Shown here piece by piece: positions 47,555 to 57,613 of a DNA stretch of 64,000 nt. The position numbers and the translations under genes were made by a program. The notes under the pieces are model-generated. The model was not told the DNA's origin. It saw only the letters and a program-made list of their open reading frames with translations, and searched no databases. The DNA comes from Chitinophaga pinensis. GTDB taxonomy: Bacteria; Bacteroidota; Bacteroidia; 2-12-FULL-35-15. Within the stretch, counting starts at the first letter, position 1; the number at the start of each line of letters is the position of its first letter. Where the stretch lies: assembly GCA_945885475.1 (NCBI GenBank), contig CAMCYR010000010.1, forward strand, positions 10,536 through 74,535. Reading direction: 5' to 3'.

Positions 47555-48274
47555 TTATACAAACTTCATTTCTTTTGAATGATGAACAGAGAAATAGTCG
47601 TTAGTAAGCGCTAAAGCCACATGCGTTATAAAAGATACTGCTATACTACCAGACGAAATAGTTACATAACAAAGCCGCAAACCGTAAGGTATTGCACCAA
47701 TAGTCTCGTTTAATCCTTTTGGAATATGCGTTGCCGAATAAAATGAAAGGTTAATCGCAACTGCAGGCCAAAAGCCAAAAGAGTAATAACACGTAGTTAA
47801 TAAAATCCCCCTAAACATAAATTCATAGGCAAAAAGATAAGATATCCAAGCAAAAGAATTAATAATAACTCTGCGTTTAGTCCACACCTTTAGCCTCATC
47901 TGAGGATAAACTTTGAGATTTTCTACATTTTTTGTTGCGAAATAATTTATCAAAGCGATTAATACACACATTACTATAATGTAAACGAACGACTGCGAAT
48001 AATTACCCAATTTCAATTCGTAATCAGCTAATGAAAAAGGCAAAAGGAATAAAGCTAAAGAGCCGGGTAGAATTCCTAAAAATAAAACACCCATCATTTT
48101 TTGGAACACCACATAATTGATCCAAGCCGTTTCTTCTTGAAATTTCATAAAATAGGATTCTTTAATTTTGGGGCTCAATGCAAAAAACCAATAAAGTATA
48201 AATCCTATTGTAGATAAAGATATACCTATGAAAGCGTTAAGGTATTCGGGTTTCCAATCATAAAAGTTAGCCAT
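47555..48274 (-). CDS. CPBP family intramembrane glutamic endopeptidase (CAAX protease/Abi family)
   Basis: EFMFRG (EExxxR-like) motif, a FxxxH motif and a conserved His in the last TM helix. Confidence 0.75.
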   Translation of the reverse strand: MANFYDWKPEYLNAFIGISLSTIGFILYWFFALSPKIKESYFMKFQEETAWINYVVFQKMMGVLFLGILPGSLALFLLPFSLADYELKLGNYSQSFVYIIVMCVLIALINYFATKNVENLKVYPQMRLKVWTKRRVIINSFAWISYLFAYEFMFRGILLTTCYYSFGFWPAVAINLSFYSATHIPKGLNETIGAIPYGLRLCYVTISSGSIAVSFITHVALALTNDYFSVHHSKEMKFV

Positions 48275-48362: not shown

Positions 48363-48396
48363 AAAAAAACCTCGCAAATTGCGAGGTTTTTTTGTG
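48363..48396 (-). terminator. Intrinsic terminator immediately 3' of the tRNA
   Basis: cctcgc-aaatt-gcgagg stem flanked by an A7 run and a T7 run. Confidence 0.75.
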
Positions 48397-48468
48397 ACCG
48401 CGAAGGGATTCAAACCCCTAACCTTCTCATCCGTAGTGAGACACTCTATTCAGTTGAGCTACGCAGCC
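48395..48468 (-). tRNA. tRNA-Arg(ACG)-like gene with a non-canonical elbow (possible variant tRNA or pseudogene)
   Basis: Cloverleaf GGCTGCG-TA-GCTC-AACTGAATA-GAGT-G-TCTCA-CTACGGA-TGAGA-AGGTT-AGGGG-TTTGAAT-CCCTT-CGCGGTC-A. Anticodon ACG. G18G19 are replaced by AA and C56 by T. There are four G.U pairs. CCA is not encoded. Confidence 0.55.
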
Positions 48469-48587
48469 ATTAGCTTTTTAAAAAAGCGATGCAAATATAA
48501 ACATTTTCCTTGTATTCAAAAGGCTTTAATATATTTTTATTTAAAAAAAGGTAAATTCAGCAAAGCACTATTTTTTTTGTAATACAT

Positions 48588-49620: not shown

Positions 49621-50009
49621 AACAGGCTTTTAATTTGTTTATCTGCTATGTTTTATTAAATTAGCTAAATAATTAGATAAAAAAAAACGCATACATACAT
49701 CTCTTGCCGATTGTTTTACTCCCCTGAGGCACAGAAAATACGAACTGGATTCATTGCATCCCTTATTCTATCGTATTGTATTTTTCAAAAACAAAAAACA
49801 AGTGTTTCACTAAAAAGAAAGGAAATTCAGTTTTATAAAAACAAAAAATACAACGTCTTACTTTCTTTCGCACGAAAGCTCACTTCTAATGCAACTAAAA
49901 GCGTTATTTGGAGTACAAATTATAGTAAATTTGTTAAAGGCAAAGGTGCATCAGTCTCCATCTTAAAATATAAATGACTTACAAATTATTAAAAATCAAA
50001 TCTTAATAA

Positions 50010-50999
50010 TTGAATAAACCTTTTTACATATTATTTTTTGTTTTGATATTGAGTGTGTTTCAATACAAGTATTCTATTGCCCAAACGAATCTTGTTTACA
50101 ATGGTGATTTTGAATTGTTCAGTACTTGTCCTAGTGGAACGGGAGGTTTAAGTGATTGCACAGGATGGTTAAATCCTACAACTGCTACCCCCGATTATTT
50201 TAATGCCTGTGCTGGTGCAAGTATTGTGGGGATTCCGAACAATGCAGGCGGTAGTCAAAATGCTTTTTCAGGTGACGGTTATGCCGGTTTTATTGCATTT
50301 GAATATGTTCCAGGTCCTACGAGTTGGTGGTTTGAATATATTCAGGGGGAATTTATTCAACCACTTTTAGCTGGCCATAAATACGAACTCACATTTTACG
50401 TGAGTTGTGGTGAAGGCTATGCTGACATAGCCATTTCAAAGATAGGAGCTTATTCTTCAGTATTGCCAATTTCTAGAACGGATTCCAATCCTTTTTTGCT
50501 AATACCCCAAGTTGTAAATTCAAATGGAGTCATATCAGATACGGCAGGTTGGACAAAAATATCGGGAACATTCATTGCATCAGGTAATGAACAATTCATT
50601 ACTCTCGGTTATTTTTCTGATACAATAATTACAGATTCATTAAGAATACAAACTTTTTCCTTCAATCCAACTTCTACTCCAAGAACCTATTATTACGTTG
50701 ATGGAATTAATGTGATCGATGTGACACCAGAAATTAATATACCAAACATTTTTTCTCCAAACGGAGATGGAGTTAATGATTTTCTAGATATTTCGAATTT
50801 TGGTCTTTCTGAGATTTCATTTTGCATTTTTAACAGATGGGGTATTAAGGTGTTTGAAACAAATAAGGTAGGCGATAAATGGGATGGAAGAACCACTTCA
50901 GGTATTAGCTGTAATGATGGAACGTATTTCTATGTATTGAAAGCAAAAGACGACAAAACGAATTATGATTTAAAAGGATTTATTCAATTGTTAAGATAA
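50010..50999 (+). CDS. T9SS type-B C-terminal sorting domain (gliding-motility-associated CTD) secreted protein
   Basis: Signal peptide. C-terminal ...IFSPNGDGVNDFL...GTYFYVLKAKDD...GFIQLL is the type-B CTD signature. Confidence 0.8.
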   Translation: MNKPFYILFFVLILSVFQYKYSIAQTNLVYNGDFELFSTCPSGTGGLSDCTGWLNPTTATPDYFNACAGASIVGIPNNAGGSQNAFSGDGYAGFIAFEYVPGPTSWWFEYIQGEFIQPLLAGHKYELTFYVSCGEGYADIAISKIGAYSSVLPISRTDSNPFLLIPQVVNSNGVISDTAGWTKISGTFIASGNEQFITLGYFSDTIITDSLRIQTFSFNPTSTPRTYYYVDGINVIDVTPEINIPNIFSPNGDGVNDFLDISNFGLSEISFCIFNRWGIKVFETNKVGDKWDGRTTSGISCNDGTYFYVLKAKDDKTNYDLKGFIQLLR

Positions 51000-51010
51000 A
51001 ACTTAACAAA

Positions 51011-53836
51011 ATGAAAAATAAATTATTGATTAATATTGCTCTATTGAGCATTGGTTTTAGCTTGCAACAAAATATTGTTGCTCAGCAAGTCCCCACGACT
51101 ACAAGCCCTGCTCTTCCAGCACTTAACGGAAGAGATGCTAGAGATTTTTGGTCTAGAGCAGGCAATTCAGGAATAGGAATTAATAACCAAAATAATATTT
51201 TTGGAACTCTAGGTAGTTTTAACTCACCTATCTATACACAAACCAATGGTGTATTTCGTGAAAAGCTTAATGGAGATTTTACCGGTGGAACCCAATACCC
51301 AATCAACGGTTATACATTTGCAACGGGAGTAAATACCAGTGGCTATTTATTGCTGGGACAAAATAATCCAACACAACCCGGTGGAGCATCTCCGCTATTG
51401 TATAATGCAAAGGGTGCATTTTCACTATTGCATTTAAATGGTCCACAAAGTACAATTCCAGGTGCAGGTTTCACACAAGAATTTGGATATCGCCCTTGGA
51501 TGAAAACTGGAATTACATTTACAGGAAACAATGACTTGATGTACTTTGGAGTGAGAGCTTTACCTTCTGCACCTCAAGACCAAACCGAAATGGTTGTTTC
51601 ATGGAGTGATAACTCAGGAGCAGGTGCTGGACCAGATGATTTCGCTTTTAGATTTATCGGGTTAGGCGCTGGCACAACAATAAGTACAACTTTAAGTGAT
51701 GAAAATGATTTAGACGGAAGACACATTGCCCGCTTTGCACCAACCGGTGAAATGGGTTTAGGAAATACTTTTGGATCGCCAGTAGGTATTTATGTTCGTC
51801 CTCAAAATTTACTTCACATGAGTTTGGATTTGCAAAAACAAGTTTTTATGCAAATTACAAATCAAAATGGAACGGGACAAAATGCTGGTGATGGACTTCT
51901 AGTTGGTTATGCTCCAACAAGTGCAATTAACCTAGAAGCTAGAATAAACCAACAAGAGAACGACCGTTTAAGTTTGTATGCAAATAACGGAGAGCGTATA
52001 CGAATTATGCAAATTGGCGCGTTGAATAATGGTAATGCTTTTAATCCAGGTTCTTTAGCGACAAACTTAACACGTATTGGAGTTAGTCATGACCCCGCAC
52101 AACCAGTTACACGTCCTTTAAGTTTGATGCATTTAGGTTATAATACTGGTGCGACAAATGATGGTTGGAGAAATTGGATGGACGTAGGAACATTTACAGC
52201 CAATGGAACAGATAATATGTATGTTGGATTAAAAAGAGAACCAACAGCTTTTCCAATTGATAGATTTGATGCTGTAATTAATTGGGGAGATAACAGTGGG
52301 CCAGTTGGGCCTTTTGCTATTGGTCCAGATAATCTTAGATTTATTTTTACATCTGCAACTGTTGGAACACCTGGTTTACCACCTTCAAATGGTGTAAACG
52401 GAGTTGAAGGAATGAGAATGACGCCTTCAACTAACGTAGCAGTTACAAATGCTCATGTGTGGACTGGAATTGGCGGTGATCCGACTGTTAATCAATATGG
52501 TCCAGGCGGAACAAGTATTAATCCAACACAAACATTAGAAGTGAATTCTTCTGAAGCTACTACAGTAGTTGGTGGAAGTAGTGGGTTGCGTTTTACGAAT
52601 TTAAATACAACTTCTCCTATAACTGCTACAAATCCTGGGTTAGGAGTTTTAGCTGTAGATGCAGATGGTGATGTTATTTATGTGCCAAGTGGTGGAAATG
52701 CTTTTGGAAATATCTGTGGTGCAGCACCCGTTCCTCTAACCAATAACTGGGAAATTCCTCAAGGAATAAATACATATAATTTTAGTGGAGTTGGCGCAGT
52801 AAATATTACTCGTCTAACAACTTGTGCACCTATCGCTAAATTTCTAGTTGATGATAATTTCTACGCTCGTACTTCCATTGTTAGAAACACTACCAATATA
52901 GCAACAAATATTGCTGGTGTTTTTATTGGTTCTGATGTTGCTAAAGTACATGCAATCGTTGTACCTAATGGAGGAGGCAATGTTGGATTCGGGGTTGGCA
53001 GTCCAAATACTACTTATAGATTACATGTGAATGGAGGGTTTCTTTTAAACGGAAATTTTGATGGAGCTGGAACCCAAACATACGTTTCTGACCAGCAATT
53101 TAAAACGAATATTGATTCTATTCCAAGTGCCTTAAATATTATTAATCAACTAGATCCAAAGTCATTCTATTTTGATACAACAAATGTTTATGGCATGAAT
53201 TTTAGCGATAAAAAACAGTATGGTTTAATTGCTCAAGATGTTGAACTTGTTTTGCCTGAATTGGTAAGCAATCTGAATAAGATAGAAGAGAGAGATAGTT
53301 TAGGTAATATTATTACTGCGTCTGTTTCTTATAAAGCATTAAACTATAACGCTTTTATTACAATTTTAATAAAAGGAATGCAAGAGCAACAATCAAAAAT
53401 TGATAGTTTAAATGATGAAAATGATGAGCATGATTCTATCAATGCTTCTTTACAAAACCAAATCAATTTATTAGCTGACATGATCAACTCTTGTTGCAGC
53501 AGTCATTCGATGCAAACAAACAACAACTCAAACACTTCTGTTACATCTCAGAATTTAGATTTGAAAGATGATCAGTCAATTGTTTTGGAACAAAACGTTC
53601 CTAACCCTTTTGCTGAACAAACAACTATCAATTATTTTTTACCAGACAATGTTGTAAAAGCACAAATGCTTTTTTACAATGCACAAGGTAAATTAATTCA
53701 ATCTGTAGATTTGAATGAAAGAGGAAAAGGTAACTTAAATGTTTTTGCTAGTGATTTAAGCAATGGTATTTATACTTATACTTTAGTAGCTGATGGAAAA
53801 GTTGTTGAGACTAAAAAAATGGTTAAACAACAATAG
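51011..53836 (+). CDS. T9SS type-A CTD cargo protein with an internal duplicated beta-rich domain and a phage tail-fibre-type intramolecular chaperone (peptidase S74-like) domain
   Basis: Signal peptide. Internal repeat (VSWSDNSGAGAGPDDFAFRFIG vs INWGDNSGPVGPFAIGPDNLRFIF). Chaperone-of-endosialidase-type motifs (YRLHVNGG, SDQQFKTNI...LNIINQLDPKSFYFD...YGLIAQDVELVLPELV). A coiled-coil follows, then C-terminal NPFAEQTTINY...GIYTYTLVADGKVVETKKMV. Confidence 0.8.
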   Translation: MKNKLLINIALLSIGFSLQQNIVAQQVPTTTSPALPALNGRDARDFWSRAGNSGIGINNQNNIFGTLGSFNSPIYTQTNGVFREKLNGDFTGGTQYPINGYTFATGVNTSGYLLLGQNNPTQPGGASPLLYNAKGAFSLLHLNGPQSTIPGAGFTQEFGYRPWMKTGITFTGNNDLMYFGVRALPSAPQDQTEMVVSWSDNSGAGAGPDDFAFRFIGLGAGTTISTTLSDENDLDGRHIARFAPTGEMGLGNTFGSPVGIYVRPQNLLHMSLDLQKQVFMQITNQNGTGQNAGDGLLVGYAPTSAINLEARINQQENDRLSLYANNGERIRIMQIGALNNGNAFNPGSLATNLTRIGVSHDPAQPVTRPLSLMHLGYNTGATNDGWRNWMDVGTFTANGTDNMYVGLKREPTAFPIDRFDAVINWGDNSGPVGPFAIGPDNLRFIFTSATVGTPGLPPSNGVNGVEGMRMTPSTNVAVTNAHVWTGIGGDPTVNQYGPGGTSINPTQTLEVNSSEATTVVGGSSGLRFTNLNTTSPITATNPGLGVLAVDADGDVIYVPSGGNAFGNICGAAPVPLTNNWEIPQGINTYNFSGVGAVNITRLTTCAPIAKFLVDDNFYARTSIVRNTTNIATNIAGVFIGSDVAKVHAIVVPNGGGNVGFGVGSPNTTYRLHVNGGFLLNGNFDGAGTQTYVSDQQFKTNIDSIPSALNIINQLDPKSFYFDTTNVYGMNFSDKKQYGLIAQDVELVLPELVSNLNKIEERDSLGNIITASVSYKALNYNAFITILIKGMQEQQSKIDSLNDENDEHDSINASLQNQINLLADMINSCCSSHSMQTNNNSNTSVTSQNLDLKDDQSIVLEQNVPNPFAEQTTINYFLPDNVVKAQMLFYNAQGKLIQSVDLNERGKGNLNVFASDLSNGIYTYTLVADGKVVETKKMVKQQ

Positions 53837-53872
53837 ATGGTATCAGGTATTTAGTATCAGGTATCAAATTAA

Positions 53873-56297: not shown

Positions 56298-56876
56298 TTA
56301 TTTACTATAAAAAGAAAATAATTTTCCATTCAGAATAGAAACGATCTTATTGTAAGAACGTGTAGTGACAAGCATTTCGTTCTGTTTAATCAAAAAGGGA
56401 AAGGGACGACTGAGTTGAACATAATTTTTATCTTTAATAAAAAACGCATCGAGTTGTGTAGTTTCACTTTCATCAAACTCTCCAATCAAATAGTTGTTGC
56501 TATTAAAGGATGTATCGATCTGCATGTCCGTATTCATTAAACAGCCTTTGTAATTTCCTTCTTTTACTTTAGTCGAATAATTAGAGTAGAAAAAATAAAC
56601 CGGACAGAAATTGAAATTGGCTTTAAAAGCAGCGATGATCGATCTGTTGTTGTTCTCCTGTTCTTTTCTGATTTCCTCTGCTTCTTTTTCTTTCCCCCTT
56701 TTTTTTAATCCGCTTATTTGCAATTCAGATGTTTTTAAGCGAACGAATAAAGCTCCGTTTTTTAACATAACAATGTTTGTTCGGGCATTATCTTTTGGTT
56801 TTACTTTTTTTTGAGCAAAGCAAACAGAAGAGATTAAAAGAAGAAAAATAGAAAGGTTGCGATTAAGTTTTTTCAT
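56298..56876 (-). CDS. Hypothetical secreted protein (start set at MKKLNRNL...; the track's upstream MPRHGISSLE extension is a translated hairpin repeat)
   Basis: Signal peptide [22 protein letters not shown]. The start codon lies inside repeat unit 1. Confidence 0.55.
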   Translation of the reverse strand: MKKLNRNLSIFLLLISSVCFAQKKVKPKDNARTNIVMLKNGALFVRLKTSELQISGLKKRGKEKEAEEIRKEQENNNRSIIAAFKANFNFCPVYFFYSNYSTKVKEGNYKGCLMNTDMQIDTSFNSNNYLIGEFDESETTQLDAFFIKDKNYVQLSRPFPFLIKQNEMLVTTRSYNKIVSILNGKLFSFYSK

Positions 56877-57316
56877 TTCTAATGATGAGATCCCGTGTCG
56901 TGGCACGGGATGACTGTTAATTAATTATACTTGTCACACAAAGCGTAATTAGTAGAAAAAAAAGCAGGCCTGTAAGCCGGGTTCTGTGGAGTTCTATCAT
57001 TTATCTAGATCTGATTAAGTTTTTTCATTTCTAATGATGAGATCCCGTGTCGTGGCACGGGATGACTGTTAATTAATTATAATTGTCACCCAAAGTGTAA
57101 TTAGTAGAAAAAAAAGCAGGCCTGTAAGCCGGGTTCTGTCGAGTTCTATCATTTATCTGGATCTGATTAAGTTTTTTCATTTCTAATGATGAGATCCCAT
57201 GTCGTGGCACGGGATGACTGTTAATTAATTATAATTGTCACACAAAGCGTAATTAGTAGAAAAAAAAGCAGGCCTGTAAGCCGGGTTCTGTCGAGTTCTA
57301 TCATTTATCTAGATCT
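56861..57316. repeat. Tandem triplication of a 152-bp unit (56861-57012, 57013-57164, 57165-57316). Each unit holds the rnpB 3' end, a T8 run, a spacer, a palindromic hairpin and the ATG of the downstream gene
   Basis: Three head-to-tail copies with about 4-6 substitutions between copies. Each contains gcaggcctgtaagccgggttctgt (the reverse complement of the RNase P RNA 3' end) and gagatcccgtgtcgtggcacgggatgac. Confidence 0.9.
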
Positions 57317-57613
57317 TGCATCACTACAAGACTCAAGCAACCTACCCTCCGAAATCGAGCGAGCAGCTCTAATGCTTCGGTTTATTTGGTCTTTCAACTC
57401 CCAAGGTTTACCCGAAATAATTGTCGCCAACTATTTCCGTGAGCTCTTACCTCACATTTTCACCATCACCAAGTATTGCTACAAGGCTGTATTTTTCTGT
57501 GGCACTTGCTGTCTTCGTATTGCTACGAATCCTTCCTGTTAGGAAGTGGGATGCTCTGTGTTGCCCGGACTTTCCTCTCCGTATTGCTACGCAGCGATAG
57601 AACGGCCTGCTCC
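57268..57613 (-). ncRNA. rnpB: RNase P RNA (bacterial type A)
   Basis: Reading the minus strand: GGAGAGGAAAGTCCGGGC (P4), ACAGAAAAATACAGCC, GGTAAGAGCTCAC, GGGTAAACC...CAAATAAACCG, AGGGTAGGTTGCTTGAG and 3' ACAGAACCCGGCTTACAGGCCTGC. P1 (GCAGGCC/GGCCTGC) and P2 (GTTCTATCG/CGACAGAAC) can pair. Confidence 0.88.

Follow-up and report, generated by a model that had tools for sequence, protein, structure and literature searches.

Background

Two reviews treat the G19-C56 pair of the tRNA elbow as conserved, and they describe the flat outer face of the elbow as the surface that is contacted by uL5, the L1 stalk, RNase P and T-box RNAs (PMC4810234, PMC7912444). Work on human mt-tRNASer(UGA) showed that a G19C mutant loses aminoacylation and that engineering an A19:U56 pair brings it back (PMC10412605). 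In that system a Watson-Crick A19:U56 pair substitutes for G19:C56 and supports recognition by the synthetase, and it is the structural integrity of the pair that matters and not its identity (PMC10412605).

Here we describe a tRNA-Arg(ACG) gene with the same replacement, found in a stretch of DNA of 64,000 nucleotides that we call the window. While the mitochondrial pair belongs to a laboratory mutant studied in vitro, the tRNA type of the window is natural, clade-wide, bacterial and cytoplasmic. We conclude, with a probability of about 0.93, that the locus encodes a functional tRNA-Arg(ACG) in a freshwater Bacteroidota bacterium and that its A19-U56 pair is the inherited standard state across much of the Bacteroidota.

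The canonical tRNA-Arg(ACG/ICG), represented by E. coli tRNA-Arg2 (argQ/V/Y/Z) and by the Bacillus-type genes, shares with the window gene the anticodon, a 9 nt D-loop with A20, a variable loop of 5 nt and a T-loop with U54-U55 and A58. The likeness presumably extends to the role, that of an I34-modified decoder of CGU, CGC and CGA. E. coli tRNA-Arg2 has G15-C48 and A37.

Results and discussion

A complete tRNA-Arg(ACG) gene with an A-U elbow

The gene is 74 nt long and occupies positions 48395..48468 on the minus strand. ARAGORN, which a preliminary description of this DNA had proposed as a check, calls a single tRNA in the 64-kb window, a minus-strand tRNA-Arg (48394-48468) with the anticodon acg. 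The Rfam model RF00005 matches 48395-48468 over its full length (model positions 1-71 of 71) with 55.5 bits, against a gathering score of 29 and with E=3e-9 for a search of the whole window. Read 5' to 3', the first half of the RNA is GGCUGCG UA GCUC AACUGAAUA GAGU G UCUCA CUACGGA UGAGA, and it continues as AGGUU AGGGG UUUGAAU CCCUU CGCGGUC A, with no CCA encoded. These parts correspond to an acceptor stem of 7 bp, a D stem of 4 bp, a D-loop of 9 nt, an anticodon stem of 5 bp, a variable loop of 5 nt and a T stem of 5 bp. The 21 stem pairs comprise only Watson-Crick and G.U pairs, the latter being the four at 2-71, 4-69, 10-25 and 50-64. Folded on its own, the tRNA sequence has a free-energy z-score of -1.31, an unremarkable value that is usual for tRNA and says little.

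The anticodon A34-C35-G36 (48432..48434, minus strand) is read from the sequence and from ARAGORN, and it is flanked by U33 at 48435 and G37 at 48431 in a 7 nt loop, CUACGGA, of the kind expected in the tRNA family. The T-loop UUUGAAU has U54, U55, a purine at 57 (G57) and A58 and is closed by G53-C61; U8 and A14 are also present. The arginyl-tRNA synthetase (ArgRS) of E. coli recognizes C35, G or U at 36, A20, and A or G at 73. Each of these identity elements is found in the window gene, as C35, G36, A20 (48449) and A73 (48395). The preliminary description, which left the strand unstated, had reported a cloverleaf with anticodon ACG and U33, this D-loop and T-loop, G37 and four G.U stem pairs, and on all of these points the sequence and the two programs agree with it.

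To place the loop residues we used the Rfam alignment together with a comparison to canonical genes of equal loop length. In both, the G of the D-loop is G18 (48451, minus strand), which is kept, and the following residue is A19 (48450), in place of the usual G19. The canonical class has a D-loop of equal length, and UGGAUAGAG and UGAAUAGAG differ solely in this second G. The Watson-Crick partner of A19 is U56, third in the T-loop (48412, minus strand). A second exchange is found at the Levitt pair, where A15 (48454) faces U48 (48420), with which the variable loop ends, both on the minus strand. Both tertiary Watson-Crick pairs are thus A-U rather than G-C: A15-U48 for G15-C48 and A19-U56 for G19-C56.

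Compared with the textbook elbow of G18 and G19 with U55 and C56, the gene has G18 and U55 and keeps the complementarity of positions 19 and 56 as A19-U56; its Levitt pair is of the regular R15-Y48 type. The exchange of G19-C56 for A19-U56 had been proposed before, and re-reading the sequence for standard elbow nucleotides leaves it as it was. The loss of G18, proposed at the same time, is not borne out. Of the changes in the D-loop, G19 to A had been noted correctly, and G15 to A15, matched by U48, had been overlooked.

The A19 type is widespread in the Bacteroidota

We scanned genomes, one per GTDB species, with an anchor made only of the A19 D-arm and the anticodon (GCTCANNTGAATAGAGNNNNNNNCTACG), leaving positions 15, 48 and 56 unconstrained. 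The scan found at least 120 A19-type loci, in about 118 species genomes among the matches listed. Going by the titles of their records, these matches comprise 67 loci of Bacteroidales (Bacteroides, Phocaeicola, Prevotella, Alistipes, Parabacteroides, Muribaculaceae, Paludibacteraceae and others), 33 of Chitinophagales including Saprospiraceae, 5 of Cytophagales, 2 of Flavobacteriales, 1 of Sphingobacteriia, 9 of unclassified Bacteroidota, 1 labelled just 'bacterium' and 2 with labels from outside the Bacteroidota.

The two foreign labels are of different kinds. One, in an Acidobacteriaceae MAG, is a chance pattern match without a tRNA. The other is a contig with a Bacteroidota-type A19/U56 tRNA-Arg in a bin named Agathobacter rectalis, a Firmicutes name, and is likely explained by contamination of the bin or by gene transfer. 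The Flavobacteriales are a species-rich order, yet they contribute only 2 of the 120 A19-type matches listed; most of them may keep G19-C56 or have another D-arm.

Although the scan left them free, A15, U48 (in a variable loop NGGUU) and U56 (in a T-loop UUUGARY) are found in 125/125 of the tRNA-Arg(ACG) genes that ARAGORN calls at the loci listed. Where the gene occurs in tandem as 2-4 copies, as in Bacteroides intestinalis and Phocaeicola, every copy has the A19 D-arm. As in the window, CCA is not encoded in most of the A19-type relatives (110/125 among the matches listed). Within the 88 distinct A19-type sequences, A15 is present in 88/88 and G37 in 86/88. We define here a Bacteroidota-type group by A15-U48, G18, A19-U56, G2.U71, A73, G37, the D-loop AAYUGAAUA and the T-loop UUUGARY. 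The window gene has all of these features, and each occurs in 86-88 of the 88 distinct relatives. Departure from the G19-C56 identity does not exclude a gene from the tRNA family, because 125/125 relatives among the matches listed are alike in this respect; within the clade of A19-type genes, that identity is not a valid criterion for exclusion.

Genes of the same length and cloverleaf are found in public genomes of Emticicia agri 17J42-9, Chitinophaga fulva, Bacteroides intestinalis AF14-32 and Prevotella spp., and they have in common with the window gene A15-U48, G18, A19-U56, A20, G37, G2.U71 and A73. The tRNA of the cultured species Emticicia agri is a single base away from that of the window, with C25 instead of U25. 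What sets the window copy apart from its Bacteroidota relatives is this U25 (forming G10.U25), together with two less common wobble pairs, U4.G69 and G50.U64; each of the three is also seen in some relatives. Eight relatives score between 57.6 and 66 bits with the Rfam model, which makes the 55.5 bits of the window ordinary for the group; the cultured species among them reach 57.6 and 57.7 (Bacteroides intestinalis), 58.0 (Emticicia agri) and 60.3 (Chitinophaga fulva).

One explanation offered at the outset for the unusual elbow was that the gene is a decaying pseudogene marked by transitions. On this view, G-to-A and C-to-U changes would have built up under AT pressure while the real tRNA-Arg(ACG) sits elsewhere in the genome. 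Several observations fit this idea: the genome is AT-rich (35-40 % GC), wherever the gene departs from the E. coli-type consensus it does so by a transition to A or T, four stem pairs are G.U, and the Rfam score is slightly lower than the 62-66 bits of canonical relatives. However, the same apparent defects are fixed in all 125 genes listed, across about 118 species that include cultured isolates and multi-copy arrays, and the Rfam score is normal for the group. Together with the pairing, the strain comparison and the expression signals below, these results contradict the pseudogene and leave it very improbable. They strongly support a functional variant with a compensated elbow, which had been proposed beside it, and in much of the Bacteroidota the compensated form turns out to be the standard one for tRNA-Arg(ACG).

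Gene order gave no additional information on descent. A tblastn search with five flanking proteins of the window against all relative loci examined found no shared neighbourhood, and in a tblastx comparison of the Emticicia agri locus with the window the tRNA is the sole match. With no synteny found among the relatives examined, orthology therefore rests on the tRNA itself.

Positions 19 and 56, and 15 and 48, change as pairs

We scanned metagenomes with positions 15, 16, 19, 48 and 56 degenerate and obtained at least 120 loci, with 123 genes among the matches listed. All sequences are of equal length, which makes the alignment trivial, and pair tables were computed directly. Positions 19/56 are G/C in 93 of the 123 genes listed, A/U in 30 and mixed in 0; positions 15/48 are G/C in 28, A/U in 95 and mixed in 0. 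Canonical genes thus differ from the window gene by G19-C56 (the 93/123 above) and usually also by C2-G71. In contrast, A15-U48 and G37 are already present in many genes from outside the Bacteroidota (65/123 of the metagenome matches listed). The nominal Fisher p value for 19/56 is 2.5e-29, a figure inflated by shared ancestry, as the A19/U56 genes look like one clade. In tRNA-Arg(ACG) the A19-U56 pair probably arose just once, and the covariation reflects long maintenance and not many independent events. The changes nevertheless come as matched pairs, with no unmatched combination at 15-48 or 19-56 in the 123 genes listed, which is not what a decaying gene predicts.

A GGY...RYC acceptor with G2.U71 and A73 is found in 30/30 of the A19/U56 metagenome genes listed, and the same Bacteroidota-type acceptor occurs in only two G19/C56 genes among the matches listed, L284 and L340. 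Because this acceptor goes with A19/U56 30 times and with G19/C56 twice, a routine second, canonical tRNA-Arg(ACG) copy in A19-type organisms seems unlikely. An NCBIfam search of the genes next to L340 gave leucine-rich-repeat matches only.

Across the 88 distinct A19-type sequences the stems are paired at every position, with many double changes. Compensatory combinations include CG, GC, UA and AU at 5-68, AU, UA, GC and CG at 49-65, and CG and UA at 28-42. Intact cloverleaf pairs with co-varying stems count against decay of the gene. The G.U pairs of the window gene are shared to different degrees in these 88 sequences: G2.U71 is found in 87, U4.G69 in 18, G10.U25 in 18 and G50.U64 in 5. The G2.U71 wobble (48467 and 48397 in the window), present in 87/88 and always together with A73, is a signature of the lineage.

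We also looked at the other tRNAs encoded at the same cellular loci (n=131). A GG D-loop with C56 is found in 127 of them; U56 occurs in 3, each with a GA D-loop, and the combination of GG with U56 in 0. These three have A19/U56 outside tRNA-Arg(ACG). Two are a tRNA-Ser(CGA) of Leyella lascolaii and a tRNA-Gly(UCC) of a MAG, Prevotellaceae UBA2448. The third, from a metagenome locus, is a tRNA-Arg(UCG) with A19/U56 and with D- and T-loops that match the Arg(ACG) type; judged by these loops, it looks like an anticodon-shifted derivative of that type.

Viral contigs were scanned for a G37-type tRNA-Arg(ACG) with either elbow state, giving 0 matches. The tRNAs from a second scan of viral contigs serve as a rough comparison set. 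Among them, phage-contig tRNAs for Ala-UGC, Gly-UCC and Gln-UUG have U56 T-loops and D-loops with GA and without GG, a pattern consistent with the same 19-56 compensation having arisen independently in phages.

It is conceivable that A19-U56, perhaps together with G2.U71, is not a neutral frozen compensation but a Bacteroidota-specific determinant or anti-determinant under active selection. Its partner might then be ArgRS, TadA, a modification or elbow-reading enzyme, or the pair might protect against a tRNA-targeting toxin or phage factor. The state is indeed very stable over deep lineages, with no reversion in the genes listed; it is mostly restricted, in the loci read, to tRNA-Arg(ACG) and the derived Arg(UCG), with 127/131 neighbouring tRNAs being GG/C56; and it accompanies the conserved G2.U71 wobble and A73. 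Against this, nothing specific points to a partner, and trapping in a fitness valley accounts for the stability without any special function. The rare A19/U56 pairs in Ser(CGA) and Gly(UCC) tRNAs favour simple structural equivalence, and an engineered A19:U56 pair is functional in another system (PMC10412605). We therefore regard an actively selected determinant as unlikely.

The simplest origin of a structurally equivalent pair would be one ancient double substitution that became fixed and is now kept by selection. It would be held in place because either single reversion breaks the pair.

The gene is invariant in ten assemblies

The Band_7 protein encoded next to the tRNA is found on 18 public contigs, of which we examined 10, from various samples and assemblers. 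The tRNA-Arg(ACG) gene has zero mismatches in 10/10 of these assemblies, including the NCBI MAG GCA_945922465.1, which is of the same species as the window, while the flanks are 98.4-99.7 % identical to the window. If the tRNA evolved like its flanks, the ten copies together should show about 6 differences; the strains are related, so this is weak support. The sequence is not an artefact of assembly or sequencing, and its identity in all ten assemblies is another point against a pseudogene.

The same contigs reveal a strain-variable island at about 49640-53859, just beyond the Band_7 gene and about 1.2 kb from the tRNA. It contains the gene of a CHU_C-domain protein (50010-50999) and that of a 941-aa Peptidase_S74/Por_Secre_tail protein (51011-53836). 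Both genes are missing from the same-species contigs L002 and L009 and are partly replaced in L003 and L005.

tRNA genes are common targets of integration, and with such an island nearby the locus could be imagined as a tRNA-like remnant that serves as an attachment (att) site or a regulatory element and not as a translating tRNA, as had also been suggested. The details do not fit. The gene is full length and not a 3' fragment; its 3' half has no second copy within the window with 3 mismatches allowed; the adjacent genes encode a CPBP/Rce1-like protease and the Band_7 protein and no integrase; and the tRNA and the variable island are not contiguous. By its sequence, moreover, the gene is a normal representative of a tRNA gene family found across the clade. 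We find this suggestion unsupported and extremely improbable.

Expression signals and demand for the tRNA

Upstream of the gene we find TATATTTG (48492..48499, minus strand), which matches TAnnTTTG and has its first base 31 nt upstream of position 1 of the tRNA. We take TAnnTTTG to be the Bacteroidota -7 promoter motif, as known from the Bacteroides and Flavobacterium literature. This motif is present within 60 nt upstream of 106/162 A19-type genes, most starts lying 25-32 nt upstream, compared to 1 match in control windows 240-300 nt upstream (counted only where 300 nt or more lie upstream of the gene). Together with the type of tRNA and with the window's genes for proteins with Por_Secre_tail and CHU_C domains, the motif suggests that the window belongs to the Bacteroidota. 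A candidate -33 element, TTTG, is suggested by the letters at 48517..48520 on the same strand, 17 nt upstream of the -7 motif. This spacer is slightly below the consensus of 19-21 nt.

A terminator directly 3' of the tRNA, already pointed out in the preliminary description, is recovered by our terminator scan as an intrinsic-terminator-like hairpin, AAAAAAACCUCGC AAU UGCGAGGUUUUUUU followed by AUUUUAU (48363..48393, minus strand). The hairpin has 14 pairs and a T-run and begins 2 nt past the discriminator base; the scan gives 1 site, where 0.2 +/- 0.5 are expected in shuffles. It insulates the tRNA from the CPBP/Rce1-like protease gene that lies downstream (47555-48274, minus strand). A gene with its own promoter motif and terminator is again not what the pseudogene explanation predicts.

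The long ORFs of the window (n=35) contain 559 Arg codons, and 340 of them (61 %) are CGU, CGC or CGA, the codons that an I34 tRNA-Arg reads, which shows the need for such a tRNA. The gene is almost certainly essential.

From established pathways a life cycle can be proposed for the tRNA. Transcription of this gene alone would start from a Bacteroidota-type sigma-A promoter (TTTG ... TAnnTTTG) and end at the tRNA's own hairpin terminator. RNase P, whose RNA is also encoded in the window (57261-57613, minus strand; Rfam RF00010, 256.6 bits), would trim the 5' end. The 3' end would be trimmed and CCA added enzymatically, since none is encoded. TadA would convert A34 to inosine, and G37 is probably methylated by TrmD (m1G37) in its G36-G37 context. 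ArgRS would charge the tRNA via C35, G36, A20 and A73, and the charged tRNA would decode CGU, CGC and CGA.

[quoted passage not shown]

The RNase P RNA gene is itself overlapped at its 3' end by a tandem repeat (56861-57316; a 152-bp unit repeated 3.0 times with 97 % identity). BLAST offsets suggest that its copy number varies among the strain contigs L001, L002 and L004.

Conclusions

We found in our literature search no description of an A19-U56 elbow in Bacteroidota tRNA-Arg(ACG), and no expression, modification or charging data for the window gene or any A19-type relative. The gene itself is ordinary, and the clade-wide compensated elbow is a modest and possibly unreported curiosity. For annotation pipelines the consequence is that such genes should be kept as tRNA-Arg(ACG) with no pseudogene flag.

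If the unlikely reading of A19-U56 as a selected determinant were true, a major bacterial phylum would have identity information encoded in the outer face of the tRNA elbow, a surface regarded as 'universal'. On the reading that we prefer, a functional tRNA with an inherited and compensated elbow, the clade-wide pattern could be a useful control for studies of elbow recognition. The Bacteroidota A19-U56 pair is then a natural and long-running demonstration that an A-U outer elbow face is tolerated by the ribosome, by RNase P, in EF-Tu-delivered decoding and by the enzymes that act on the T-loop.
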